A DNA stretch of 64,000 bases. It comes from a virus. Numbering within the stretch: the first letter of the stretch is position 1; each line of letters opens with the position of its first letter. The notes under the pieces were generated by a model. The model ran no database searches. It was not told the origin of the DNA and worked only from the letters and a program-made list of their open reading frames with translations. This document shows positions 10,830 through 23,237 of the stretch, piece by piece. A program made the position numbers and the translations under genes. The DNA is taken from the IMG/VR virus record IMGVR_UViG_3300034061_002899. The stretch is one strand, 5' to 3'.

Positions 10830-10905
10830 TGGAGCGGGATAAGAGGCTCGAACTCTCGACCTATACCTTGGCAAGGTATCGCTCTACCAACTGAGCTAAT
10901 CCCGC
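10830..10905 (-). tRNA. tRNA-Gly(GCC)
   Basis: Cloverleaf, anticodon loop TT-GCC-AA, encoded CCA. Confidence 0.95.
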
Positions 10906-10907
10906 AT

Positions 10908-11057
10908 TTAACTTGGTATCATTTTTGGCATATAAGGAACTGCTCTAGGTCCATGACGTTGTTGTAATAGCATACGTGCTTCTTCAGCATTGTTTGCTCC
11001 TACTCTGTCTGTGAACTCTTTACCGTTCACTCTTACTGTTGCTTCAAATAATTTCAT
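10908..11057 (-). CDS. small hypothetical protein
   Basis: MKLFEATVRVNG... lies between tRNA-Val and tRNA-Gly. Confidence 0.5.
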   Translation of the reverse strand: MKLFEATVRVNGKEFTDRVGANNAEEARMLLQQRHGPRAVPYMPKMIPS

Positions 11058-11063
11058 AATGAT

Positions 11064-11139
11064 TGGTGGGTCGTGACAGGCTCGAACTGCCGACATTCTG
11101 CGTGTAAGGCAGACGCTCTACCAACTGAGCTAACGACCC
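11064..11139 (-). tRNA. tRNA-Val(TAC)
   Basis: Cloverleaf, CT-TAC-AC, CCA. Confidence 0.95.
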
Positions 11140-11149
11140 TTTATTTTAT

Positions 11150-11335
11150 TTAACCACCTTGTTCACTGTCTTTAACATTTCCCCAATCAATGACTGGCTT
11201 TTCTACATTCATGTCAGGGAGAGGAGGAGGAACGTATCGTTCTTTTGGTGGCTTCTTACCGAATATAGCATCATGCTTATCGGCTAATTCCTCTAAACTT
11301 ATACTAAATGGTCTTGGTCTACTACCTTTACTCAT
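11150..11335 (-). CDS. small hypothetical protein
   Basis: MSKGSRPRPFS...; AAGGAA SD. Confidence 0.6.
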   Translation of the reverse strand: MSKGSRPRPFSISLEELADKHDAIFGKKPPKERYVPPPLPDMNVEKPVIDWGNVKDSEQGG

Positions 11336-11357
11336 TTGATTTCCTTTAAATTAAACT

Positions 11358-11434
11358 TGGTCGGAGTACAAGGATTCGAACCTTGGACCCCCTGGTCCCA
11401 AACCAGGTGCGCTACCAGACTGCGCCACACTCCG
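11358..11434 (-). tRNA. tRNA-Pro(TGG)
   Basis: Cloverleaf, TT-TGG-GA, CCA. Confidence 0.95.
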
Positions 11435-11461
11435 AATTATTTATAGCCCGATGTTATCGAA

Positions 11462-12097
11462 TCACTTTTTCCACAAGTGACTCACATCATCAGGCATTTT
11501 GTATTCATTTCGATATTGCAATATAGTAATATCATCATACTGATCTTTACCATTCCAAGGTGCACCTAATGCTAATGTAACCTTACATTCATCTGATGTG
11601 TTAATCATCCCGTGAGGGAAGCCACCATCCATTACAAATGCATGTTCTATATCAGGAGCAGATACTTTTCCTTTATCAGTAATCCAGTATAGTGTACTAG
11701 TATTACCTTGCAAAACAATTCTTATCTTATGTTGTAACGTGTTCAACTCATGGGGACTACAATCAATATGTTCGTTGTTTGCCCCACCTGGTTTTGTTAT
11801 CAACGCCATTACTCTAGCTTTACAGCCTATCCAGGGAAAAATATAATCTTCAAACCAATCAACGATTACTGCAGGAGTATGACTAACCCAACAAAAGTCA
11901 CCCGGTTGATTATTACTAGTTCCGTCGACACCTATCCCGCCTTTAGTGTTTAAAGGAAACATTTGTGTATGTCTATAGTTGTCCCAAAAACTTAACTTAC
12001 TATCAAGTGCTAAAATTTCTTTGGAGGCTTTTTTCTTATCTAAGATGGGTATACCATCTATTCTAGCAAACAACAAATTATCGGCTGGTTTAATCAT
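11462..12097 (-). CDS. 2OG-Fe(II)/Asp-Asn beta-hydroxylase-like protein
   Basis: HID...PHG facial-triad-like motif. Confidence 0.55.
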   Translation of the reverse strand: MIKPADNLLFARIDGIPILDKKKASKEILALDSKLSFWDNYRHTQMFPLNTKGGIGVDGTSNNQPGDFCWVSHTPAVIVDWFEDYIFPWIGCKARVMALITKPGGANNEHIDCSPHELNTLQHKIRIVLQGNTSTLYWITDKGKVSAPDIEHAFVMDGGFPHGMINTSDECKVTLALGAPWNGKDQYDDITILQYRNEYKMPDDVSHLWKK

Positions 12098-12106
12098 ATA
12101 ATATAT

Positions 12107-12634
12107 TTATGTTAATAGAAACACTGGATCAATATCTGTAGCAACCGTCATACAGATTCTTGGAACTGTATTCATATTTGTATGCACTCTATGTGGTTCT
12201 TGAACCCTAATTACTGTAGGTCTAATGATTTCAACCTCTGCTACCTTAGTAGGTATTGAATTATCTTTCAATAAGTAATAAGGTATTCCATTCTGTTGAA
12301 AAAACATAGTATACTCACCACCTGAATAAAATTCAGTGCGTGAGCCTTCGCAATTCAAAATAGGAATATTGATTCGACATTGTGATTTAAGATTACTCTT
12401 ATAGTCAATATGAACTTTAGAATGTTCTTGTAGGAAGGTTACGTACAACGCAACTTTTTTTACCTTTAGATTATAGTCTGCAAACGCAGACAATATTTCA
12501 GGACAATATTCAAGGTAGTCCTTATCTAGTAAGGAGAACCCTACTCTCACCGATGAATGATGTTCAAGAAACTTTTTGGTCTTTTCTTGAATGACCTCAA
12601 AGTTTTGTATTTCAATCTGATTAAAATATTTCAT
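12107..12634 (-). CDS. 2OG-Fe(II) oxygenase-like protein
   Basis: HID...RINIPILNC...PHRV...R. Confidence 0.5.
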   Translation of the reverse strand: MKYFNQIEIQNFEVIQEKTKKFLEHHSSVRVGFSLLDKDYLEYCPEILSAFADYNLKVKKVALYVTFLQEHSKVHIDYKSNLKSQCRINIPILNCEGSRTEFYSGGEYTMFFQQNGIPYYLLKDNSIPTKVAEVEIIRPTVIRVQEPHRVHTNMNTVPRICMTVATDIDPVFLLT

Positions 12635-12637
12635 ATT

Positions 12638-12712
12638 TGGATGCGGGTGACAGATTCGAACTGCCGATGCACCTGGCTTATGAGACCGGTGTGGTGACCA
12701 ACCCTACCCGCG
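12638..12712 (-). tRNA. atypical tRNA-Met(CAT), initiator-like
   Basis: C1:A72 mismatch, CT-CAT-AA loop, TTCGAAT T-loop, CCA; shrunken D-arm. Confidence 0.75.
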
Positions 12713-12715
12713 TAA

Positions 12716-12784
12716 TTTATAAATGTATTTCTTTTTCACTTACAGAGCCAGTCTTATCAGCTGGGTATGAAACACATTTATAAA
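12716..12784 (-). ncRNA. small structured RNA candidate with 16-bp closing stem
   Basis: TTTATAAATGTGTTTC...GAAATACATTTATAAA (one G-U pair) with an inner CCAG/CTGG hairpin. Confidence 0.45.
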
Positions 12785-12786
12785 GT

Positions 12787-12975
12787 GAGACTGCTACTAC
12801 ACCACATAGCCCAGTCTCTGAGTTGTTACACTGTCCACTTCTTCAATCTAGACGGTTAGAAGTCCGCCTTTGTGATTTTTCAAGTCGCTTTAAACAAGCC
12901 TTGCAGTAGATCCAATGCACTGTGCTATTAAGGTATTAGCAATTACCTAACTCTATTACGCTGAGTTAACGCGGG
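12787..12975 (-). ncRNA. structured ncRNA candidate (GGACAG family, copy 1)
   Basis: Multiple hairpins; 3' half aligns with 17330-17524. Confidence 0.55.
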
Positions 12976-12980
12976 TTTAT

Positions 12981-13056
12981 TGGTGGAGGATACCGGGATC
13001 GAACCGATGACCTACTGGTTGCAAACCAGTCGCTCTCCCAACTGAGCTAATCCCCC
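12981..13056 (-). tRNA. tRNA-Ala(TGC)
   Basis: G3:U70 pair, TT-TGC-AA, CCA. Confidence 0.95.
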
Positions 13057-13443
13057 TCATCTCAGTAAGCCTCTACTTCCTCGTCCACTACCTTTATTCT
13101 TGGCAGCATATGATGCAGTTTGGCTATGACAGTTTGGACACAACAGCCTTACATTTTCAGGCATATTATTACCAGCATTGCCATCTATATGATCTAACTG
13201 TAATGCTAACGGCACATTGTTATGTATTCCGTTATTACTACAACAAGCACATTTATATCCTGTTAGTTTTGTGATAATCTTATTCAGTGTCCGTCTATCT
13301 TTTACCTCACCTAAGTAAAATTTAGGCATAGTTAAATCTTTAAAAGTAAAATCAGCCTGACATTGATTGTCGCAAAACTTATTTTTATTATTACGCTTTA
13401 CAGTGTTTTCTCTGTTACAGTGTAGGCAGTTAAATGTATTCAT
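13057..13443 (-). CDS. HNH endonuclease (free-standing, within tRNA array)
   Basis: CACC...LQLDHIDGNAGNN..ENVRLLCPNCHSQT. Confidence 0.9.
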   Translation of the reverse strand: MNTFNCLHCNRENTVKRNNKNKFCDNQCQADFTFKDLTMPKFYLGEVKDRRTLNKIITKLTGYKCACCSNNGIHNNVPLALQLDHIDGNAGNNMPENVRLLCPNCHSQTASYAAKNKGSGRGSRGLLR

Positions 13444-13522
13444 AGTATAATTCTTTGTAGTCCGTATACTATTTATGCAAACGCTCTACATTTTGATATT
13501 TACCTACACCCCCAATATTCTT

Positions 13523-13599
13523 TGGTGCCCTAGGAGAGACTCGAACTCTCAGTTTACGGCTTCTAAGACCGCTGTGTCTACCAATTTCACCACCAGGGC
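13523..13599 (-). tRNA. tRNA-Leu(TAG), short variable arm
   Basis: CT-TAG-AA, Leu-type D-loop, 77 nt, CCA. Confidence 0.9.
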
Positions 13600-13659
13600 A
13601 TTCATTTCAATACGTATTGTAACAGAGAACTATTTATCTGTCTACTGTTTTGGATAACT

Positions 13660-13733
13660 TGGAGCGGGGTAACAGAATCGAACTGTCCGCATCAGATTGG
13701 AAATCTGAGGTATTACCACTATACGAACCCCGC
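13660..13733 (-). tRNA. tRNA-Gly(TCC)
   Basis: TT-TCC-AA, CCA. Confidence 0.95.
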
Positions 13734-14501
13734 TTATATATATTTTCTTTCACTTAACCAGGGCACAATAACCTCATCAACAAATTCTTTATGCATCTCT
13801 GTTGTGGGGTGATGTGGACCTGTAAGAATATTCCATTCTTCAGGATTAGACTCTGCGTATTTTGAATTTTTTGATATCCAATTATACTGACTAGTTATAG
13901 GAAGATACTGCTCTGTATCAATTTGTTTATATAAGTAATCTATTTCAGGATGTGTTATATTTTCAGGCAGAACAATATTATCGTCCATATAATTAGTAAA
14001 AAAATATTTAATATTTTTTGATTTTAGAAACCATTGTGTTTTCAATATATGCTCAATCGAATATATACTTGATCCTATTTCATCATGGAACATTTTATAA
14101 TATGTCATCGCTTCTTTATTATTTTCTGCCCAATTGGTATTAAGTATTACCCAATTTTTTGTACTATCTTTTACAAAACCAGTTGGATTTTCCATCCATC
14201 CATTATGTACTTTATCAGATACAAAATGTAATAAACCAGGTGATGTACATCTAAAGTCATGTCTATTAGAACCACTCCACATAACACCTACTAGTATATC
14301 TTCTGGTTTATGTGTCTTTAGTGCTTCTAGTACACCATATATTATACTTCTACTTATAAGTCCGTTACCCTGACTACCCATTGCATAACTCTTATGATCA
14401 TAGTCAGTTAATTCTTTAGATAAATGTATAGGCCACGCTTTATTTGCATAACTAATACATTCACTAAAACTACAACCTGAGGTGATTAATAATTTTTTCA
14501 T
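13734..14501 (-). CDS. SGNH-like protein
   Basis: SGCSFS, GN, VMWSG..R, C-terminal HP...H. Confidence 0.55.
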   Translation of the reverse strand: MKKLLITSGCSFSECISYANKAWPIHLSKELTDYDHKSYAMGSQGNGLISRSIIYGVLEALKTHKPEDILVGVMWSGSNRHDFRCTSPGLLHFVSDKVHNGWMENPTGFVKDSTKNWVILNTNWAENNKEAMTYYKMFHDEIGSSIYSIEHILKTQWFLKSKNIKYFFTNYMDDNIVLPENITHPEIDYLYKQIDTEQYLPITSQYNWISKNSKYAESNPEEWNILTGPHHPTTEMHKEFVDEVIVPWLSERKYI

Positions 14502-14511
14502 AAATATACTT

Positions 14512-14679
14512 ATGCACATTTACGATGCTATTACAAATTCCGGATTACACATCCATCTTTCAATGATGGAAGATGAATCCTTTTACATTATGGTACATGA
14601 TCTTGTGAACTTCACTATGCAAATGAAGTTCTTTAGTAGCGTTGAGCCTGCTAGAGCATTTATTCAATCACTAGAATAA
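14512..14679 (+). CDS. small hypothetical protein
   Basis: ATG shortly after a TAAATA box; divergent from the SGNH-like gene. Confidence 0.45.
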   Translation: MHIYDAITNSGLHIHLSMMEDESFYIMVHDLVNFTMQMKFFSSVEPARAFIQSLE

Positions 14680-14681
14680 TT

Positions 14682-14755
14682 TGGCATCCCCCCAAGGATT
14701 CGAACCTTGACTAACGGTTTTGGAGACCGGTATGCTGCCATTACATTAGGGAGAT
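14682..14755 (-). tRNA. tRNA-Trp(CCA)
   Basis: CT-CCA-AA, CCA; 5' end overlaps the upstream CDS. Confidence 0.9.
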
Positions 14756-15286
14756 ATTTAATTCTTTTAATTTGTCTAAGTAATGTGATTGACCTTTACT
14801 GACCATTGAACGCCAGTCATTTAGTGAATCATCATTGGCTCCGTCACTAACAAACTTGTAACATAGAAACTCTACTTTATGTTTCCTGCATACTTTCGCA
14901 ATAGCGTATGCTTCCATATCTACTACATCAGCAGGAATTAATAAGTTACTATCTGTGACAAAGTTATCACCTGTACTACAAGTTAATCCATCACCATTAT
15001 CAATGATGATAGTATCTTCAAATGGTGTTTGACCTGGTAGACTACCTAACTCACAGCACATCATATCACGTTGAATAAACTTTGACACTTGATGGAATCC
15101 TGACTTAACAGTAACTCCACCTGCTGTACCAAAGTTGATAACACGATCAGGGTTGTACTTGGCAATCAACTCAGCCGCAGTCATTGCGGCATTTACTTTT
15201 CCTACACCTGTGTAAAATACTTTCATACTGAAAGCCATGTCAGGTGCTTCTTCTTTCAATGCAATTAATATTAAATCTTTTTTCAT
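14741..15286 (-). CDS. mtnN: MTA/SAH nucleosidase-like (PNP/UDP family)
   Basis: GVGKVNAA, INFGTAGG, TGDNFV, VDMEAYAIA, KFVSD motifs. Confidence 0.8.
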   Translation of the reverse strand: MKKDLILIALKEEAPDMAFSMKVFYTGVGKVNAAMTAAELIAKYNPDRVINFGTAGGVTVKSGFHQVSKFIQRDMMCCELGSLPGQTPFEDTIIIDNGDGLTCSTGDNFVTDSNLLIPADVVDMEAYAIAKVCRKHKVEFLCYKFVSDGANDDSLNDWRSMVSKGQSHYLDKLKELNISLM

Positions 15287-15295
15287 AAATTCTCT

Positions 15296-15387
15296 TGGTG
15301 GAAACGGTGAGATTCGAACTCACGGGACGCATTAACATCCGACAGTTTTCAAGACTGTTGCAATAAACCGGGCTCTGCCACGCTTCC
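15296..15387 (-). tRNA. tRNA-Ser(TGA)
   Basis: Long variable arm, CT-TGA-AA, CCA. Confidence 0.95.
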
Positions 15388-15575
15388 TATTTTATTAGTA
15401 TATCTACGTTTTGACCTTTAGCGGCAGGTTCTATTTTTCCTGTATTGTCGTAAAGGTATTGTATGACTTCTAAAACTGTTTTATTTGTCTTAGGATCTAC
15501 TAGAGTACGATACTCGGTGTTGCGATATTGGTTATAAACCATATCCCAACTGTTTGTTATACTTTGTACTATCAT
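15387..15575 (-). CDS. small hypothetical protein
   Basis: 62 aa; ATAAATA box 5 nt before ATG. Confidence 0.5.
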   Translation of the reverse strand: MIVQSITNSWDMVYNQYRNTEYRTLVDPKTNKTVLEVIQYLYDNTGKIEPAAKGQNVDILIK

Positions 15576-15588
15576 ATAGTATTTATTA

Positions 15589-15683
15589 TACCATATAGAA
15601 ACACACTTTTAAACCTTTCTTCAGCGTTTAGTCGCTATCTCCCTTACTAATCGGGCGTAGGGTAAATGTGTTTTTATATGGTA
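15589..15683 (-). ncRNA. small structured RNA candidate with long closing stem
   Basis: TACCATATAAAAACACA...TGTGTTTCTATATGGTA with two inner hairpins. Confidence 0.45.
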
Positions 15684-15752
15684 GGAGTGTTCGGGAACGA
15701 TCCGAATTTTACCGGTTAAAAGCCGGTTACTTCACCTTAAAGTTTCACTCCC
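15679..15752 (-). tRNA. tRNA-Lys(TTT), atypical T-loop
   Basis: CT-TTT-AA; T-loop ATCGTTC; CCA. Confidence 0.85.
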
Positions 15753-15812
15753 ATAAGTCGTAATGATTGATTTTACGTGCCAATCATAGACCTACGGAAG
15801 TCTATGATGACA

Positions 15813-15833
15813 CTATCGCTTACTGCGTTTCAT
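15813..15833 (-). CDS. minigene MKRSKR*
   Basis: AAAGGAAACGAC-ATG AAA CGC AGT AAG CGA TAG followed by a long hairpin. Confidence 0.4.
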   Translation of the reverse strand: MKRSKR

Positions 15834-15856
15834 GTCGTTTCCTTTGTTAAAAAATT

Positions 15857-15932
15857 TGGAGTGGGTGACAGGGGTCGAACCTGCATGTCACGGATTTGCA
15901 ATCCGCTACCTAACCATTCAGTACACACCCAC
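15857..15932 (-). tRNA. tRNA-Cys(GCA)
   Basis: TT-GCA-AA, U73, CCA. Confidence 0.92.
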
Positions 15933-15937
15933 ATATT

Positions 15938-16138
15938 GCTCTGGCATCCCCCGGCGGTAATTATAGAGTATCAAGACATGACGCTATCATACCCATCACA
16001 CACTCCTTCCACCCGCTTCCCGAAACAGGGACCGTTCTCGCATTGCCAGCGGCCTTTGGGTTTAAAGACTACCACCCGTAGCTGTCACGCTACTTCTCAT
16101 CCTGTGGGTCACAGTATCCGGAGACACCCGGAACGTTC
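15938..16138 (-). ncRNA. GC-rich structured ncRNA candidate
   Basis: Hairpins TCCGG/CCGGA, CTGTG/CACAG, GTAGC/GCTAC, TCCC/GGGA, GAGTGT/ATACTC; much more GC-rich than flanks. Confidence 0.5.
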
Positions 16139-16153
16139 TTTTATAAATACAGT

Positions 16154-16336
16154 ATGGATATCCAAGACTGCATTGATATAGTTGAAAAGTTGTTGCGTCA
16201 AAACAACCGTAATTATAAGGATAGCCACGAACAATTATTATATGAACGAGGTTACCTTACTGGTATGCTTGCTCGGATGATGATTGAAAATCCTATGTTT
16301 CGCAATGAAATCATAGACCGAGCAAAAAAGAAATGA
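16154..16336 (+). CDS. small hypothetical protein
   Basis: Exact TATAAATA at 16142-16149, 4 nt before ATG. Confidence 0.55.
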   Translation: MDIQDCIDIVEKLLRQNNRNYKDSHEQLLYERGYLTGMLARMMIENPMFRNEIIDRAKKK

Positions 16337-16337
16337 T

Positions 16338-16425
16338 TGGTGGAGAGTGTGGGATTCGAACCCACGCACCCATTGCTGGATGACAGATTAGCAATCTGTT
16401 GGTTTAACCACTCACCCAACTCTCC
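16338..16425 (-). tRNA. tRNA-Ser(GCT)
   Basis: Long variable arm, TT-GCT-AA, CCA. Confidence 0.95.
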
Positions 16426-16431
16426 TATACA

Positions 16432-16508
16432 TGGTGCCTCCGACAGGACTCGAACCTGTAACCAATGGATTATGAGTCCACTGCTCTAACCAATTGAGCT
16501 ACCGAGGC
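16432..16508 (-). tRNA. tRNA-CAT (Ile2 or Met)
   Basis: CT-CAT-AA, CCA; identity ambiguous. Confidence 0.85.
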
Positions 16509-16515
16509 GCTATTT

Positions 16516-16920
16516 TTAATTATTTCTTAAAACTTGTTCTCGCCTTTCTTTGACGATTTCATTTCTTTTACTAACATCTTTTATTTTTTGTATATCCAAA
16601 CAATCTCTAATACAATCGTCAGGTAATGCCATATTTTTTCTAACAAGTTTAGCAACTTCTAATTCATTTGGTAATAACCCGCGAAGGCCGTTAAAGGGTC
16701 TTTTCCACATTCCGTTATCTACTGCATGACAGGTTATACATGTATGATCGGGCATTGAAGGTCGCATGTCTCTAGCTAAATGATTACCTGTTAACTTAGA
16801 GCATACATAGTTATCTGTTACTGTGGGGTATTCTATACCACAACTATTAGTTGAGATTGGTTTTAATGTTGAACACCCGGTAAGTAAAAGAAACATTAAT
16901 ACTAAGCCTATTTTTTTCAT
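16516..16920 (-). CDS. lipoprotein with CxxCH motif
   Basis: Lipobox LTGC; CITCH. Confidence 0.55.
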   Translation of the reverse strand: MKKIGLVLMFLLLTGCSTLKPISTNSCGIEYPTVTDNYVCSKLTGNHLARDMRPSMPDHTCITCHAVDNGMWKRPFNGLRGLLPNELEVAKLVRKNMALPDDCIRDCLDIQKIKDVSKRNEIVKERREQVLRNN

Positions 16921-16956
16921 GTATCACCCTTTATATGGACAGAGAACTTAAAAATT

Positions 16957-17042
16957 TGGTGCGACTGGCCGGAATCGAACCGGCACGCTGTTACGGCGAG
17001 AGATTTTAAGTCTCTTGTGTCTACCTATTTCACCACAGTCGC
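16957..17042 (-). tRNA. tRNA-Leu(TAA)
   Basis: CT-TAA-AA, long variable arm, CCA. Confidence 0.95.
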
Positions 17043-17055
17043 AAATCTTGTTATC

Positions 17056-17084
17056 ATTATATATCATACAATGATTGTAGTCAA
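17056..17084 (-). promoter_or_regulatory. sigma70-type promoter
   Basis: TTGACT-17 nt-TATAAT just upstream of tRNA-Leu. Confidence 0.7.
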
Positions 17085-17090
17085 ATATTA

Positions 17091-17167
17091 TGGCGCACCG
17101 TAGGGGACTCGAACCCCTGGCCTCATGCGTGACAGGCATGCGATCTAACCAACTGATCTAACGGTGC
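17091..17167 (-). tRNA. tRNA-Asp(GTC)
   Basis: CT-GTC-AC, G73, CCA. Confidence 0.95.
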
Positions 17168-17239
17168 AAAATCTGTGATAGTTTCTATACAACCCATTGA
17201 AACTAACAAACATTGAGTATATTGCTACACTATTTGTCT

Positions 17240-17323
17240 TGGTGGAGACGGTTGGAGTTGAACCAACAGTGCCGAAGCGGAAGATTTACAGTCTCCTGGG
17301 GTTACCAATTTTCCTACATCTCC
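17240..17323 (-). tRNA. tRNA-Tyr(GTA)
   Basis: CT-GTA-AA, variable arm, CCA. Confidence 0.93.
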
Positions 17324-17329
17324 AAAATT

Positions 17330-17524
17330 AGTATAAGCTACTTGTTTCCACACAAGCCCTTAATTGAGCGGTTACTCTGTCCATCTCATTTATTCAAAGT
17401 CTGTGTGCAGTGAGAATCTGCCTATCAGAGCCTGCGAGGGTATTTTTAATCCTCACGCTAACGGTTTTCTGCCACCGGATCTCTATCATTAATCAAACGC
17501 TATTTTAACGAAAATAGTAACGGG
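17330..17524 (-). ncRNA. structured ncRNA candidate (GGACAG family, copy 2)
   Basis: AGGCAG..stem..TGGACAGAGTAACCGCTCA..GGGCTTG..CAAGTAGC aligns with copy 1. Confidence 0.55.
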
Positions 17525-17528
17525 ATAC

Positions 17529-17604
17529 TGGAGCTCGGTACGGGATTCGAACCCGTGTGAATGCCGTGAAAGGGCACTATCCTAGGCCACTAGATGAACC
17601 GAGC
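17529..17604 (-). tRNA. tRNA-Glu(TTC)
   Basis: CT-TTC-AC, CCA. Confidence 0.93.
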
Positions 17605-17608
17605 ATTA

Positions 17609-17736
17609 TGTTATTAGTTTTGCTGACGCACTATTTGCTATGTCTCAACGGAATTGGTGGCCACACTACCGTTTATCGTCATAGTTACGTAGGGTTGACG
17701 TTTACCCAAGGGCTTACATCAGCAAAACTAATAACA
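17609..17736 (-). ncRNA. structured RNA candidate with perfect 18-bp closing stem
   Basis: TGTTATTAGTTTTGCTGA...TCAGCAAAACTAATAACA with nested helices. Confidence 0.5.
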
Positions 17737-17738
17737 CA

Positions 17739-17951
17739 CTATATGAAAACACACTATGGGAACTACTAAACAAATAGTCAGTACCGTCTACTGATTCAAT
17801 GTCATTCGTCATTACTGCCTAACTGCCCGTCACGTTCGTAACTTTCGTTATCATACGCTTCTTGTACTCTATGCGAAGCCAGTCCGTCAACTGGTTATGC
17901 TTCCATAGAGTACCTAACGGATCAGGTAACCCTTAATATGTTTACATATAG
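17739..17951 (-). ncRNA. structured RNA candidate with long closing stem and possible pseudoknot
   Basis: CTATATGTAAACATATTA...TAGTGTGTTTTCATATAG; loop TCCGTT is complementary to loop GACGGA. Confidence 0.5.
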
Positions 17952-18037
17952 AGCCCTGAACTTAACAGGGATATATGAATTCTAAATTTTAAAGAACTTT
18001 GTTGAAATGTCTGATGACTTTCTCAACTCATGCTATG

Positions 18038-18066
18038 ATTGTATCATAACTTCCATTTGTTGTCAA
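18038..18066 (-). promoter_or_regulatory. sigma70-type promoter
   Basis: TTGACA-17 nt-TACAAT with extended -10 TG. Confidence 0.75.
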
Positions 18067-18119
18067 ATTCTTTTTTGTGTCTCTGTTTCCAAGAACTTGT
18101 TCAATCAATCTATAACTAG

Positions 18120-18148
18120 AGTATAGCACTAAACTGATTTATTGTCAA
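18120..18148 (-). promoter_or_regulatory. sigma70-type promoter
   Basis: TTGACA-17 nt-TATACT with extended -10 TG. Confidence 0.8.
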
Positions 18149-18152
18149 ATTT

Positions 18153-18227
18153 TGGTCCGGGGTACAGGAATCGAACCTGTATTGACTGCTTAGAAGGCAG
18201 CTGTATTATCCATTATACTAACCCCAG
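18153..18227 (-). tRNA. tRNA-Arg(TCT)
   Basis: CT-TCT-AA, A20, CCA. Confidence 0.93.
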
Positions 18228-18248
18228 ATAAATGTCTAACTTGCCTCT

Positions 18249-18277
18249 ATTATAGCAGAGAATTGATTTATTGTCAA
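18249..18277 (-). promoter_or_regulatory. sigma70-type promoter
   Basis: TTGACA-17 nt-TATAAT with extended -10 TG. Confidence 0.85.
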
Positions 18278-18298
18278 GTGTGACAATAACTATTTGAT

Positions 18299-18374
18299 TG
18301 GCTCCCCGACCTGGGCTCGAACCAGGGACCTACGGATTAACAGTCCGGTGCTCTACCAACTGAGCTATCGAGGA
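18299..18374 (-). tRNA. tRNA-Asn(GTT)
   Basis: CT-GTT-AA, G73, CCA. Confidence 0.95.
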
Positions 18375-18379
18375 ATATT

Positions 18380-18454
18380 TGGTGCCCCAGGTTAGAATCG
18401 AACTAACTACCTACCGCTTACAAGGCGGGTGCTCTACCAGTGAGCTACAAGGGC
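18380..18454 (-). tRNA. tRNA-Thr(TGT)
   Basis: CT-TGT-AA, CCA. Confidence 0.93.
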
Positions 18455-18484
18455 TTTTGTCTTACGACTTGTTTATTTAACAGT

Positions 18485-18513
18485 ATTGTATCATAGGAAA
18501 ACTTTTTTGTCAA
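18485..18513 (-). promoter_or_regulatory. sigma70-type promoter
   Basis: TTGACA-17 nt-TACAAT. Confidence 0.75.
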
Positions 18514-18514
18514 C

Positions 18515-19075
18515 CTATGATAATAATATTCTACTGTGTTTGGGAACACCGGCAAGCAAGTATTCCATTTGGTCTGCAAGAATAGTTCTATGTTGTAATA
18601 TCATATTCTCGTAATGATTAGGTACGTAAGGTGCATAAATTAATTCCATACGTGCTTCTTTCAATGTCTTGTGACCTTTCTTGCTGTTACAATCTTTACA
18701 AGCTGTAACAACGTTCATCCAGGTGTTCTCACCACCTTTACTCTTTGGATGAATATGATCTCTACTTAGTAAGTGAAAGTTAGGAAAGTGTTCACCGCAG
18801 TAAGCGCATACATGTCTATCACGACCAAATAATGTTTTGTTAGTTAGTGCTACACAAGAATGTTTGTATGGGTTGAATCCGTGTCCTTTGATAGCAATAA
18901 TACTAGTAGCTTCCAAGTAACTTAATGTACCGTCTTTTTGTATGCCACCACGATATTTAGCCACAATTTCCCCCATTGACCATGCTATGGCATCTTTTGC
19001 TTTATAGGTAATTGCGTCATCATTTGAGATCCACTGCCGGGGAACTCCTGAGATATCTAGTGCTAGAACAGCCAT
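18515..19075 (-). CDS. HNH endonuclease
   Basis: LFGRDRHVCAYCG...SRDHIHPKSKGG.NTWMNVVTACKDCN; AAGGAG SD before ATG 19075. Confidence 0.85.
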   Translation of the reverse strand: MAVLALDISGVPRQWISNDDAITYKAKDAIAWSMGEIVAKYRGGIQKDGTLSYLEATSIIAIKGHGFNPYKHSCVALTNKTLFGRDRHVCAYCGEHFPNFHLLSRDHIHPKSKGGENTWMNVVTACKDCNSKKGHKTLKEARMELIYAPYVPNHYENMILQHRTILADQMEYLLAGVPKHSRILLS

Positions 19076-19123
19076 GTAAAACTCCTTTTCTGCTATTGTC
19101 ACTAATTGTATTTAATGCCGTAT

Positions 19124-19198
19124 TGGCGGGTCCTGCAGGAATCGAACCCACATCCCGAAGTTCGAAGCATCGTATTCTATCCATTGAACTAAGGACCC
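19124..19198 (-). tRNA. tRNA-Arg(TCG)
   Basis: CT-TCG-AA, CCA. Confidence 0.88.
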
Positions 19199-19200
19199 AT

Positions 19201-19276
19201 TGGTACCAAGAGTTGGACTCGAACCAACCACACCTAGTGCTTCAAACTAGTGCTCTACCTGATGAGCTATCTTGGC
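19201..19276 (-). tRNA. tRNA-Phe(GAA)
   Basis: TT-GAA-GC, CCA. Confidence 0.92.
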
Positions 19277-19280
19277 TTAT

Positions 19281-19441
19281 AAAGGTGGGAGCCTAACTAT
19301 CTTATTGTTAGTAAGCCTCGCTAGATTGTCTCGTATAGGCAAGTTTATACACCCATCAATCATACTATAGTGTCATCACAGTTAACCCCACGGTGACTAG
19401 ATTGGCAGGGACTCGAACCTATCGTCTATCCCATAAACTTT
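19281..19441 (-). ncRNA. structured RNA candidate containing a T-arm-like motif
   Basis: AGGTTCGAGTCCCTGCCA inside an AAGTTTAT...ATAAACTT closing stem; no complete cloverleaf. Confidence 0.4.
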
Positions 19442-19449
19442 GAAAATTA

Positions 19450-20118
19450 TTATTTACTTTTATAAGGCAACGTACACCACATGATTACAGCAGTTTTCGA
19501 TTCTATGCCATTTTTAAGATAGTTATCGCTACAGTGCCATTTATATCGGCTGGCTGCCAACAATGAACCGGTCTTCCATGGGAAAACGGTTTCAATTGAT
19601 AAGTATCTCATTTTTTCTCTCAACTCATATGAAAGGTATTTTTCATATGTTTCGTCATCTATAGAATCAATGGGGTCTGCTTTTTGAATGTATTCGTCAA
19701 TATTTTTACTAGTGGTATACCATTCATTAAAAATGACAGTATTAGAATCTACTGTTTCTAATGGAATAACAACTGTATATGCACCATAGTGGTCATCATC
19801 TATTCCATATTCCCCATATATACCATCTATATGTGTTCGGTATGGAGTATATGATTCTAATATATGCATCCCACCTATAACTAAATCAGCTCCAAATTCT
19901 TTATGCATTTTTTCTCTTAATAACAAATCAGAATTTTTCATCGACGGATTATCTAATATTGACGTAATTTTACATTCTAATTCATTTTCGGAATATGTTT
20001 CAGATATAGCGTTTGGATCTACGGTAATAGCTTCAAGTAAAATAGATTCAACCTCTGTATTAGATAAAAAATTATCTATAACTCTAGTATCAACAATGGG
20101 TGGGTTAAGATTAATCAT
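19450..20118 (-). CDS. 2OG-Fe(II) oxygenase-like protein
   Basis: HID...VVIPL...WKTGSL...WH.S; TATAAATA box upstream. Confidence 0.5.
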   Translation of the reverse strand: MINLNPPIVDTRVIDNFLSNTEVESILLEAITVDPNAISETYSENELECKITSILDNPSMKNSDLLLREKMHKEFGADLVIGGMHILESYTPYRTHIDGIYGEYGIDDDHYGAYTVVIPLETVDSNTVIFNEWYTTSKNIDEYIQKADPIDSIDDETYEKYLSYELREKMRYLSIETVFPWKTGSLLAASRYKWHCSDNYLKNGIESKTAVIMWCTLPYKSK

Positions 20119-20141
20119 AATATAACTATTTATATAATGTT

Positions 20142-20219
20142 TGGCACCCCCTCAAGGATTCGAACCTCGGTGTGTCGGAATCAAAATCCGATGCCTTAGA
20201 CCAACTTGGCGAAGGGGGT
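20142..20219 (-). tRNA. tRNA-Gln(TTG)
   Basis: TT-TTG-AT, G73, CCA. Confidence 0.93.
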
Positions 20220-20228
20220 ATTTTATCT

Positions 20229-20318
20229 TTAATAAAGAGACTCCTTGTACACATTACATAAATGTGTCCATGCTTCAATTTCTTGTTTATGCTTTTCTAC
20301 TGATTGATTCCAACTCAT
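20229..20318 (-). CDS. 29-aa small ORF
   Basis: AAGGAG-ACTCAA-ATG; MSWNQSVEKHKQEIEAWTHLCNVYKESLY*. Confidence 0.5.
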   Translation of the reverse strand: MSWNQSVEKHKQEIEAWTHLCNVYKESLY

Positions 20319-20336
20319 TTGAGTCTCCTTAAAATT

Positions 20337-20411
20337 TGGTACCGCCACCTGGACTTGAACCAGGGACCTACGCCTTATCAAGGCGGTGCTCTACCACTGA
20401 GCTATAGCGGT
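20337..20411 (-). tRNA. tRNA-Ile(GAT)
   Basis: TT-GAT-AA, CCA. Confidence 0.93.
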
Positions 20412-20415
20412 GAAT

Positions 20416-20490
20416 TGGTGGATGTAAGTAGATTTGAACTACTGACCTGCTCCGTATGAAGGAGATGCACTACCGCTGTGCTATACATCC
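20416..20490 (-). tRNA. tRNA-Met(CAT), elongator-like
   Basis: TT-CAT-AC, paired 1:72, CCA. Confidence 0.88.
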
Positions 20491-20491
20491 A

Positions 20492-20568
20492 TGGGGTGCT
20501 TGATGGGATTCGAACCCACGTATATCGGAATCACAATCCGAGGTCTTAACCGCTTGACGACAAGCACC
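20492..20568 (-). tRNA. tRNA-His(GTG)
   Basis: G-1:C73, TT-GTG-AT, CCA. Confidence 0.95.
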
Positions 20569-20575
20569 ATACTAT

Positions 20576-20652
20576 TGGTACGACCTAAGAGAGTTGAACT
20601 CCTGACCCCCAAGTTCGTAGCCTGGTGCTCTATCCATCTGAGCTAAGGTCGC
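20576..20652 (-). tRNA. tRNA-Arg(ACG)
   Basis: CT-ACG-AA, A20, CCA. Confidence 0.95.
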
Positions 20653-20724
20653 ATTCTAAAACATACTATGGCTTAACCTTTCAGGGGTCAGGGTACTGTT
20701 TACCCATAGTATGTTTTAGAATGC
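20651..20724 (-). ncRNA. small structured RNA candidate with perfect 21-bp closing stem
   Basis: GCATTCTAAAACATACTATGG...CCATAGTATGTTTTAGAATGC around two hairpins. Confidence 0.5.
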
Positions 20725-20870
20725 CGTGTATTTCTACACGACATGATAGGGTCGATACCCTATCCAGTAGTCTTACTTTTTGTGTTACCGCCACAAATTT
20801 CATGTGTACTGTCCGCCCATTCTATACATTTTGCGCTGTATTACGGCTCTCGTTGCCTATTCACGCTGTC
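20725..20870 (-). ncRNA. structured ncRNA candidate (possible GGACAG family, copy 3)
   Basis: ATAGGCAA...GGGCGGACAG followed by hairpins. Confidence 0.4.
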
Positions 20871-20871
20871 A

Positions 20872-21039
20872 TCAATCAGTATAAGTTAGTTGGTTAACTT
20901 TCTTAGTAGCCTCTTGATAGACTTTAGCACGTTCAAGTTTATTTTCTATCAACCGTGCTACTTGCTCCTTAGTCAAAACATGATTGCTAAACCAATCTGT
21001 CTTGTCTTTAGAAGTTGTGTATTCTATCTGTTCATCCAT
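20872..21039 (-). CDS. 55-aa hypothetical protein, first ORF after the terminator
   Basis: MDEQIEYTTSKDKTDWFSNHVLTKEQVARLIENKLERAKVYQEATKKVNQLTYTD*. Confidence 0.45.
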   Translation of the reverse strand: MDEQIEYTTSKDKTDWFSNHVLTKEQVARLIENKLERAKVYQEATKKVNQLTYTD

Positions 21040-21049
21040 TTATTGTCAA
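21021..21049 (-). promoter_or_regulatory. sigma70-type promoter
   Basis: TTGACA-17 nt-TAGAAT. Confidence 0.65.
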
Positions 21050-21062
21050 ATCCATTCTGTAT

Positions 21063-21101
21063 AAGTAAAAACCCCTGAGACTTTTTAGTTTCCCAGGGGT
21101 T
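21063..21101 (-). terminator. intrinsic terminator (candidate attenuator)
   Basis: AACCCCTGGGAAACT-AAAA-AGTCTCAGGGGTT followed by TTTACTT. Confidence 0.75.
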
Positions 21102-21129
21102 AGATAAATTTAGTTATGATGTTAACTTG

Positions 21130-21267
21130 TTACCTAGTCCCCGGGCCATGTTCATTTGAATCATTGTAGCCACGAATACTTGTTGGATATGCTGGTACAA
21201 AGGATACACTGGCTGTTGTCTGCCATTGCCCGTTATGCTTCAACATGTTACAAGTTTTATTCATCAT
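21130..21267 (-). CDS. putative 45-aa leader peptide
   Basis: MMNKTCNMLKHNGQWQTTASVSFVPAYPTSIRGYNDSNEHGPGTR*; CTAAATA box 7 nt upstream; 3' end complementary to the terminator. Confidence 0.6.
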   Translation of the reverse strand: MMNKTCNMLKHNGQWQTTASVSFVPAYPTSIRGYNDSNEHGPGTR

Positions 21268-21343
21268 AGTCTTTTATTTAGTCCTGGTTTAAAATTAGTG
21301 CAAATTACATATGTTTTTTGCACCTTTTCTCAATTCATGCTGA

Positions 21344-21372
21344 AGTATAGCATAGCTAGGAATTGATGTCAA
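21344..21372 (-). promoter_or_regulatory. sigma70-type promoter upstream of the leader ORF
   Basis: TTGACA-17 nt-TATACT with extended -10 TG. Confidence 0.8.
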
Positions 21373-21433
21373 CATTTTTTTAAAGCATGTTGCCCAAAAA
21401 TTTTGTTTATGATTAGCCCGTATACCCTAGTTA

Positions 21434-22258: not shown

Positions 22259-23237
22259 ATTTGAATGTCATTTTGTTTTTTAAATCATTAATATACTGTA
22301 TCGGATTATTCAATACCAGTTGATTTTGTTTTGCATGATAGTTACTTAAAGTATATTTGATAAATTCTTGTTTGTCAACTTCCAATTGCCCAAAAAGTTT
22401 TGTAAATATATGAGTTAACTGGTCTCCGTCATTTAGTCTAATAACATCATATGGTAATATTATACATTCTTCATCTATAAAATCAGAATAAGGTGCGATT
22501 ACCTTAAAAGGTTCTTGTTGACCAATTTCATGACCCACATTGGGTAATAATACATGATGACCGACCGTTGGCAACAACACATAATTAACTACGTCAGGTG
22601 TATCCCCTAATAACTTGTAGTATTCAAACATGCGAACCAGGGTAATATAAGTTACTATATCTTGGTAATCAGGATTGAATCTATCATCTACAATCGTTTT
22701 TGCTAACTCTTTATCATCAAATAGTTTAGTAATTTTATATTCAGCATATTCTTTCCATCTATCTAATGCAACATTACGTCTGTTTTTGGAAATGGTTGAT
22801 ATCACATTAGGATCTAATATGTTTTTTAATTGTTGTAATATTGTAATTGTTAATTTTTCAGCCAAGGACTCTTGGGTAACTACTAGTATTTTTGCGTTTG
22901 GAAACAGGTGGCGGTAAATTGGGATGTTTGTAAAATCGTGTGTACAGCTTATTATTGGTTTTTTTATATCAAGTTGGGTGAATTGTTGTTGAACGTCAGA
23001 AATTTTAGCTAACCTATTGTGTGCTAATGATAACGGTCGTACAAAAGTAGTACGTGGTAAATTTACTTTATTAGATGTAGTATTTGATATTACGTGAAAA
23101 CTTCCAGTTGAAGAAATGTCTAACTTAGACAAGTTGTTTGACATTAGTTTATCTGTCAATCCTGCTAGAAAATTACCACCGGCGCCCGGGTGAAAAACGA
23201 TAAAATAATGTCTTAAGTTATATACATCGCTCATCAC
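22230..23237 (-). CDS. hypothetical protein, P-loop/sulfotransferase-like
   Basis: HPGAGGNFL N-terminal motif, TH motif. Confidence 0.4.
   Translation of the reverse strand: MMSDVYNLRHYFIVFHPGAGGNFLAGLTDKLMSNNLSKLDISSTGSFHVISNTTSNKVNLPRTTFVRPLSLAHNRLAKISDVQQQFTQLDIKKPIISCTHDFTNIPIYRHLFPNAKILVVTQESLAEKLTITILQQLKNILDPNVISTISKNRRNVALDRWKEYAEYKITKLFDDKELAKTIVDDRFNPDYQDIVTYITLVRMFEYYKLLGDTPDVVNYVLLPTVGHHVLLPNVGHEIGQQEPFKVIAPYSDFIDEECIILPYDVIRLNDGDQLTHIFTKLFGQLEVDKQEFIKYTLSNYHAKQNQLVLNNPIQYINDLKNKMTFKYEIFNNTGM

Follow-up and report, generated by a model that had tools for sequence, protein, structure and literature searches.

A candidate translation-sensing attenuator whose leader peptide comprises the complete amino-acid set, upstream of a phage tRNA array

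We analysed a 64,000-nucleotide stretch of viral DNA (hereafter the window) and found, at the head of its tRNA array, a short leader open reading frame in which all 20 amino acids are represented. The frame precedes an intrinsic terminator, with which an antiterminator competes. Comparison with related loci suggests that this element is probably a ribosome-mediated transcription attenuator whose leader ORF has been selected to contain the full set of amino acids. The sequence-level support for this reading comes from the conservation of the ORF, the selection on its composition, the presence of both helices with covariation, their geometry and their energetics.

Phage tRNA arrays are widely discussed as a means of sustaining translation late in infection or of replacing tRNAs destroyed by host defences, and to our knowledge essentially nothing is known of their regulation. 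If the attenuator reading is true, the leader would be the first described sensor coupling decoding capacity to the expression of a tRNA array, and would provide a rare, clear example of a peptide selected for the amino acids it includes and not for its sequence. A switch of about 200 nt that responds whenever any amino acid is short would also be a compact part for synthetic biology.

The leader locus and its relatives

The features of the locus are collected in Table 1. A preliminary description of this DNA had placed on the minus strand a sigma70 promoter (21344-21372), a CTAAATA box (21275-21281) and a 45-codon ORF with 20 amino acids and 31 different codons (21130-21267), together with internal promoters at 21021-21049 and four more at 18038-18513; all of these are present as described, and the 31 distinct codons place the leader in the top 3.8% of the phage's own 45-codon windows. 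A TTGACA/TATAAT-like pair is also found 5' of the leader in representative relatives, and a TTTYGGGYAA motif is conserved 5' of P1 in relatives. In the window, TTTGGGCAA occurs twice on the minus strand (21390-21398 and 22386-22394), each time just 5' of the -35 box of a strong sigma70-type promoter, and this sequence and the TTTYGGGYAA motif may represent a putative upstream promoter element or the binding site of a regulator.

The box preceding the leader was kept in 44 of 44 distinct variants found via the terminator alone, and other genes of this phage have a similar layout, (T/G)ATAAATA-N5-8-ATG. Several minus-strand genes devoid of a Shine-Dalgarno sequence carry (T/G)ATAAATA 5-8 nt before their ATG (for instance at 20134-20118, 10509-10495, ~12110-12097, ~26948-26935 and ~30596-30583); these boxes resemble the T4-type late promoter and are so placed that the mRNA would be nearly leaderless. 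By this likeness the leader box may be a late-type promoter giving rise to a near-leaderless mRNA, in which case the attenuator may matter most late in infection, when the sigma70-type promoters are perhaps shut off. The leader ORF has no Shine-Dalgarno sequence at normal spacing, which counts against the attenuator reading as far as translation from P1 transcripts is concerned.

Table 1. Features of the leader locus in the window and of the analogous leaders in cultured phages
Feature	Position	Strand	Details
P1, sigma70-type promoter 5' of the leader	21344..21372	-	TTGACA-17-TATACT, TG extension, 11/12 consensus matches
5' UTR hairpin	21297..21324	-	missing from relatives with the promoter nearer the ORF
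GGACTAAATA box	21275..21284	-	includes CTAAATA at 21281-21275; 7 nt 5' of the leader ATG
Leader ORF, unannotated	21130..21267	-	45 codons + stop, MMNKTC...GPGTR*, all 20 amino acids
Antiterminator 5' strand (putative)	21130..21145	-	last five codons + stop codon; includes CCCGGGGACTAG at 21145-21134
Antiterminator 3' strand (putative)	21092..21107	-	TTATCT flank + terminator 5' arm; includes CTAACCCCTGGG at 21103-21092
Intrinsic terminator	21063..21101	-	hairpin 21101-21070, 11 bp, 10-nt loop, about -17 kcal/mol (-17.0), five T
P2, sigma70-type promoter, bypasses the terminator	21021..21049	-	TTGACA-17-TAGAAT
ORF2, 55-aa helical protein	20872..21039	-	conserved in >50 variants
Structured RNA between ORF2 and first tRNA	20653..20871	-	~220 nt, z = -5.8
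Array of 26 tRNA genes	10830..20652	-	all 20 amino acids; ARAGORN and Rfam, 26 each
Analogous leader in BUDD	L139:641-818 (ON758385.1)		unannotated 39-codon ORF behind ATAAATA-N6-ATG, head of the main tRNA array
Analogous leader in X1	matching stretch of L138 (OQ427096.1)

Relatives were retrieved from IMG/VR by criteria that made no use of the body of the ORF: an exact search with the 32-nt hairpin yielded 55 contigs, and a search with the start context (CAGGACTAAATA, 4-5 nt, ACTATGA) brought the total to 134 loci. A conserved short ORF upstream of related tRNA arrays, the presence of which the preliminary description had proposed to verify, was thereby recovered in more than 100 uncultured phage contigs and is represented by 99 distinct DNA variants. 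In all 99 of these the frame is open over 40-59 codons with the same ATG and start context, and it ends 16-32 nt 5' of the terminator. According to blastn, the conserved block extends from P1 to just before the first tRNA; the upstream protein gene (274 aa) is not conserved, and no relatives of it were found in viral contigs. Wherever a locus offers enough sequence, the leader stands at the head of an array of tRNA genes on its own strand, with up to 42 tRNAs in the fetched stretch, and the only tRNA 5' of a leader is a single one located about 4 kb upstream in two loci. A leader-peptide attenuator calls for a short ORF upstream of the genes that it regulates, and the leader appears to occupy this place. 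Many of the relatives' contigs measure 200-520 kb, and CheckV rated fragments of 13-37 kb as 4-10% complete, which points to genomes of several hundred kb. Searches of the phage collection by blastn or tblastn returned no close cultured relative of this phage.

Completeness of the amino-acid set

All 20 amino acids occur in 79 of the 85 distinct leader peptides (40-59 aa), the remaining six containing 19. A profile search of 1.84 billion cluster representatives provided 55 family members at ≤50% identity; among 54 cluster representatives, once mis-called starts had been trimmed, 43 displayed all 20 amino acids, nine had 19 and two had 18. By comparison, only 1.4% of the 45-residue windows drawn from the phage's own long ORFs are complete (1.4-5.8% for windows of 45-58 aa), and of the window's 62 ORFs of 40-60 aa that start with ATG, the leader alone has the full set. 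Independent draws from the family's own composition were complete in 0.5-8% of cases.

Since homologues inherit their composition, the full set might simply reflect descent combined with chance, the coverage of this diverse short ORF being under no selection, and the analogous leaders of the Xanthomonas phages BUDD and X1, with 18 and 19 residue types respectively in 39 codons, a coverage that is not significant on its own, could be read in the same sense. Two nulls speak against this explanation. Permuting residues within alignment columns for 19 representatives sharing <60% identity left 2.4 +/- 1.3 full sets, with a maximum of eight in 5000 permutations, whereas 17 were observed; and when a full-coverage root was evolved on the family tree with site-specific rates, 4-11% of the tips were complete, no replicate exceeding 42%, compared with an observed share of 93%. 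Rare residues have moreover been regained at new positions. Descent and chance are thus a very improbable explanation, which these comparisons appear to have largely refuted already. The comparison with shuffled ORFs suggested in the preliminary description hence came out clearly, coverage lying far above the shuffled, proteome and phylogenetic nulls.

The way in which the rare residues move is informative in itself. Among the representatives, Cys is found in six different alignment columns, Trp in five arrangements and His in seven; three leaders (L035, L103 and L076) have lost the usual Trp and have one near the C-terminus instead, and two others (L058 and L122) carry Cys at a place other than the usual one. 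Such shifts of Cys, Trp and His between lineages argue that selection acts on the amino-acid inventory and not on position, and the family-wide comparisons indicate that the composition of the leader is under selection for all 20 amino acids.

Coverage at the level of tRNA species was considered as well and rejected: 23 of the 25 phage anticodon species have a codon in the leader, the codons of Leu-UAG and Arg-UCG being absent. Two seemingly complete arrays lack a tRNA (Phe in one, Trp and Val in the other), yet their leaders contain those residues, so that the leader is no simple mirror of the array. The contigs with leaders short of one amino acid stop before their array is complete.

Competing helices and the proposed switch

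The terminator hairpin begins 28 nt after the leader ORF and was missed by a simple terminator scan because its loop exceeds 8 nt. Hairpin and T run are present in 99 of 99 variants, 16-32 nt 3' of the stop codon. For 60 short-class sequences in an unfitted MAFFT alignment, the cells of the stem are 98.2% paired and show compensatory substitutions, C-G to A-U and U-A to C-G among them.

Folding without the 3' arm of the terminator lets the 5' arm and some 6-10 nt of flanking sequence pair with the 3' portion of the ORF, as was the case for 98 of the 99 variants. The variants fall into a short class (40-49 aa, including the window's leader), in which the partner is formed by the last four or five codons plus the stop, and a long class (class B, 51-59 aa), in which it lies 15-41 nt before the stop and the stop sits in the apical loop of an extended hairpin. 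These duplexes have a mean energy of -20.7 kcal/mol (z = -4.1 relative to shuffles), and the cognate combination of ORF tail and flank pairs better than non-cognate combinations between lineages in 275 of 342 comparisons. Covariation is detected in both classes: 86.7% of the cells pair in the short class (score 0.192 vs 0.137) and 88.5% in the long class (0.166 vs 0.110), scores reached by none of 500 shuffles in either case. One pair of the short class is G-C in 33 sequences and A-U in 23, and three sequences of the long class share a clean double change from U-A to C-G. In the diverged leaders L046, L105, L122 and L079 the C-terminal residues differ and the register shifts, and a contiguous helix of 10-11 bp with the terminator arm is kept.

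The preliminary description had noted that the last codons of the window's leader, CCCGGGGACTAG, can pair with CTAACCCCTGGG in the 5' arm of the terminator; this pairing was borne out, and the covariation and folding analyses that it recommended revealed that the terminator and the antiterminator, which overlaps the last codons, both covary and that two competing states can be obtained. In the window, the antiterminator hairpin is predicted at -21.6 kcal/mol against -17.0 for the terminator, and the antiterminator is also the predicted fold of the 86-nt segment in which both lie; when the fold is extended to the whole leader, the terminator state has the lowest energy. The elements required of an attenuator, namely a terminator between the leader and the downstream genes, and an antiterminator that excludes it and overlaps the ORF, are accordingly both predicted at this locus.

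The full amino-acid set is completed close to the presumed switch point. Of the 78 full-coverage peptides, 77 reach their 20th amino-acid type at a codon situated 5-17 nt (median 10) 5' of the antiterminator strand; in the window's leader, the set is complete at Glu39, 8 nt before this strand. Among the representatives, completion falls 5' of the strand in 17 of 17 cases against 6.0 expected under random placement, a comparison to be read with the homology of the tails in mind, as they are not fully independent. In the long class, the 12-17 codons beyond the completion point add no new residue type.

An anti-antiterminator of the trp type was searched for within the ORF and is unsupported, as the pairing of the antiterminator strand with the upstream ORF is no stronger than with shuffled sequence (mean z = +0.27); a weak 6-bp helix joining this strand to the start-codon region is seen in class B leaders alone. 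The lack of a 1:2 helix points to a three-element design, in which read-through would be the default and termination would require that a ribosome occupy the end of the ORF when the choice is made.

Under the proposed mechanism, transcription would start at P1, and possibly also at the CTAAATA box, and the RNA could form an antiterminator hairpin between the last five codons plus stop and the 5' arm of the terminator. A ribosome that has passed through the whole ORF and stands on the last codons as RNA polymerase makes the terminator would cover the antiterminator strand, whereupon the terminator would form and transcription stop. If the ribosome were instead held at any earlier codon, any one charged tRNA being short, or were absent, the antiterminator would form first and the polymerase would read into ORF2, the structured RNA and the tRNA array. 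The leader would thus act as an OR gate over all 20 amino acids, and so as a gauge of overall decoding capacity. We infer from this arrangement that stalling drives read-through, as we do the natural trigger, for which anticodon nucleases, starvation and decay of host tRNA are candidates, and the contribution of the switch to tRNA output.

The attenuator reading put forward in the preliminary description is supported by every comparative test that had been proposed there, with two amendments: the switch would comprise three elements, since no trp-type anti-antiterminator was found, and read-through would reach ORF2 and the structured RNA before the tRNAs. With moderate confidence, we further regard the leader as a universal gauge, in which the selected property would simply be the presence of every amino acid before the switch point, the gate would operate over 20 charged tRNA families, and the output would raise the phage tRNA supply together with a small protein and a structured RNA. 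If this is true, a large phage lineage would possess feedback control over translation when host tRNAs are cleaved, decayed or uncharged. Some observations count against attenuation, among them the leader's coverage of all amino acids but not of all tRNA species. The stop codon of class B leaders lies ~17-35 nt 3' of the antiterminator strand, so that a single ribosome at the stop would not cover it, and 26 of the 99 variants have only 3-4 T after the stem.

This last feature leads to an alternative in which the element is also a translation-sensing RNA switch but its output would not be termination; the hairpin exchange would instead govern ORF2 translation, the processing or stability of the RNA, or how the structured RNA downstream folds. 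Besides the short T runs, some of which are accompanied by a structured RNA directly after the hairpin and by the absence of P2 and ORF2, the start of ORF2 20-50 nt 3' of the hairpin would suit such an output; this start is located in neither helix, however, and the GC-rich stem is canonical and followed by five or six T in 71 of the 99 variants (five in the window). We consider an output other than termination unlikely.

A different possibility is that the locus is a stand-alone micro-protein gene, the 45-aa peptide being the product, for instance a regulator or an inhibitor, and the pairing between its 3' end and the terminator being incidental or related to mRNA stability. The unit indeed has its own promoter and terminator and is followed by another promoter, the peptide motifs KH.G.W and YPTSIRG are conserved, and dN/dS is below 1. 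At ~0.5, though, this ratio indicates a weakly constrained sequence, weakly so for a functional protein, and the leader matched no family in Pfam or PHROGs. A folded or binding peptide would also give no reason for retaining all 20 residue types while Cys, Trp and His move, nor for an antiterminator that covaries and shifts register while the C-terminal residues change. We therefore judge a stand-alone gene to be quite improbable and favour attenuation, against which it counts that the conserved YPTSIRG motif hints at an additional role for the peptide or for the RNA encoding the motif.

Downstream genes, known systems and cultured relatives

P2 is a strong promoter that immediately follows the terminator, and its conservation in most relatives, even in some without ORF2, argues that it is a real bypass. 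With P2 in this position and further promoters within the array, tRNA synthesis would not depend on read-through, a point that counts against the attenuator reading. The preliminary description had cautioned that internal promoters bypass the leader, and this caveat has been reinforced by the conservation of P2 itself; the attenuator would probably add to tRNA transcription or take over late, and not be its sole gate.

ORF2 carries the motif DWF.NH.LTKEQ.AQLI.NK.ERAK.Y, and its predicted model consists of two helices (mean pLDDT 82.6). It matched nothing in Pfam or PHROGs, and a sequence search against solved structures, Foldseek and the ESM Atlas gave nothing usable; the Atlas likewise yielded nothing for the leader. 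Its ATG is located 4 nt after the -35 box of P2, inside the P2 spacer, and there is no internal Met, from which it follows that P2 transcripts should be unable to encode ORF2 and that only transcripts reading through the terminator would do so. The structured RNA is present in essentially all relatives, and its stems visibly covary; it features a hairpin with an AACGAGR loop and a covarying stem, a GGGCGG motif and a long AU-rich closing stem abutting tRNA-Arg, and it had no match in Rfam. As to the array, the 27 tRNAs reported initially were recounted as 26 by both ARAGORN and Rfam, and their coverage of all 20 amino acids was upheld. The array also harbours an HNH endonuclease ORF (18515-19102, minus strand; Pfam HNH_5, E = 1.7e-17), which adjoins a cluster of four consensus sigma70-type promoters (18513-18038).

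In a set of loci (L003, L011, L044, L051, L018, L068, L094, L110, L111, L117 and L084), the T run just 3' of the leader hairpin is cut to TTT(T)CC. The structured RNA directly follows the hairpin in most of them, P2 and ORF2 being absent, and this arrangement looks like a deletion or recombination variant of the module.

Attenuation architecture as such is known, and the closest functional precedent is the uORF of whiB7 in mycobacteria, with which the phage leader shares a diverse, non-repetitive ORF followed by a terminator with a competing antiterminator. Experiments on the whiB7 attenuator show that it senses a shortage only if its uORF contains the residue concerned, and the Mycobacterium smegmatis uORF contains 19 of the 20 amino acids (PMC10274678). 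As in that system, efficient translation of the phage leader would lead to termination and slow translation to read-through, and in its architecture and diversity the leader is consistent with a broad translation-stress uORF attenuator of the whiB7 type. A similar general translation-stress attenuator is that of bmrB-bmrCD in Bacillus subtilis. The phage leader nonetheless differs from whiB7 uORFs, which vary and are Ala-rich, in keeping full 20-residue coverage across a large and fast-evolving family; the element is viral, and it would control a tRNA array, a small ORF and a structured RNA instead of a stress regulator or a pump. The two are not similar in sequence, so that they would form a functional class and not a homology family.

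The leaders of the trpL, hisL, leuL, thrL, pheL and ilv type likewise combine a short ORF with a mutually exclusive terminator and antiterminator, a ribosome at the leader end favouring termination. Unlike them, the phage leader has no tandem codons, its 20 amino acids being spread over the ORF without runs and many of them occurring once only, and no 1:2 helix is detectable; an untranslated phage leader should consequently read through and not terminate. The best match among Rfam leader families was His_leader, at 16 bits against a gathering score of 49. T-boxes lack an ORF and recognise one particular uncharged tRNA by direct binding; the phage leader would be analogous to these riboswitches in coupling read-through to tRNA charging via a terminator/antiterminator switch. 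In the Rfam scan, tRNAs alone scored above threshold, with no T-box, GOLLD or ROOL, and our literature search found no published description of a 20-amino-acid leader element. The new features would be the conserved, selected completeness of the amino-acid set and the viral tRNA-array context.

The nearest cultured phages, as judged from ribonucleotide reductase (60% identity), are the Xanthomonas phages BUDD, which has 37 tRNAs, and X1. The leader profile gave no match in BUDD, and the analogous leader was found there by position and not by sequence (Table 1). In both phages, the end of this ORF, comprising its last codons and the stop, pairs with the 5' arm of a terminator lying downstream, and on this layout the architecture is the same as that of the window's leader, which makes the idea directly testable in BUDD and X1. 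The differences between the two phages are concentrated in the 39-codon leader ORF.
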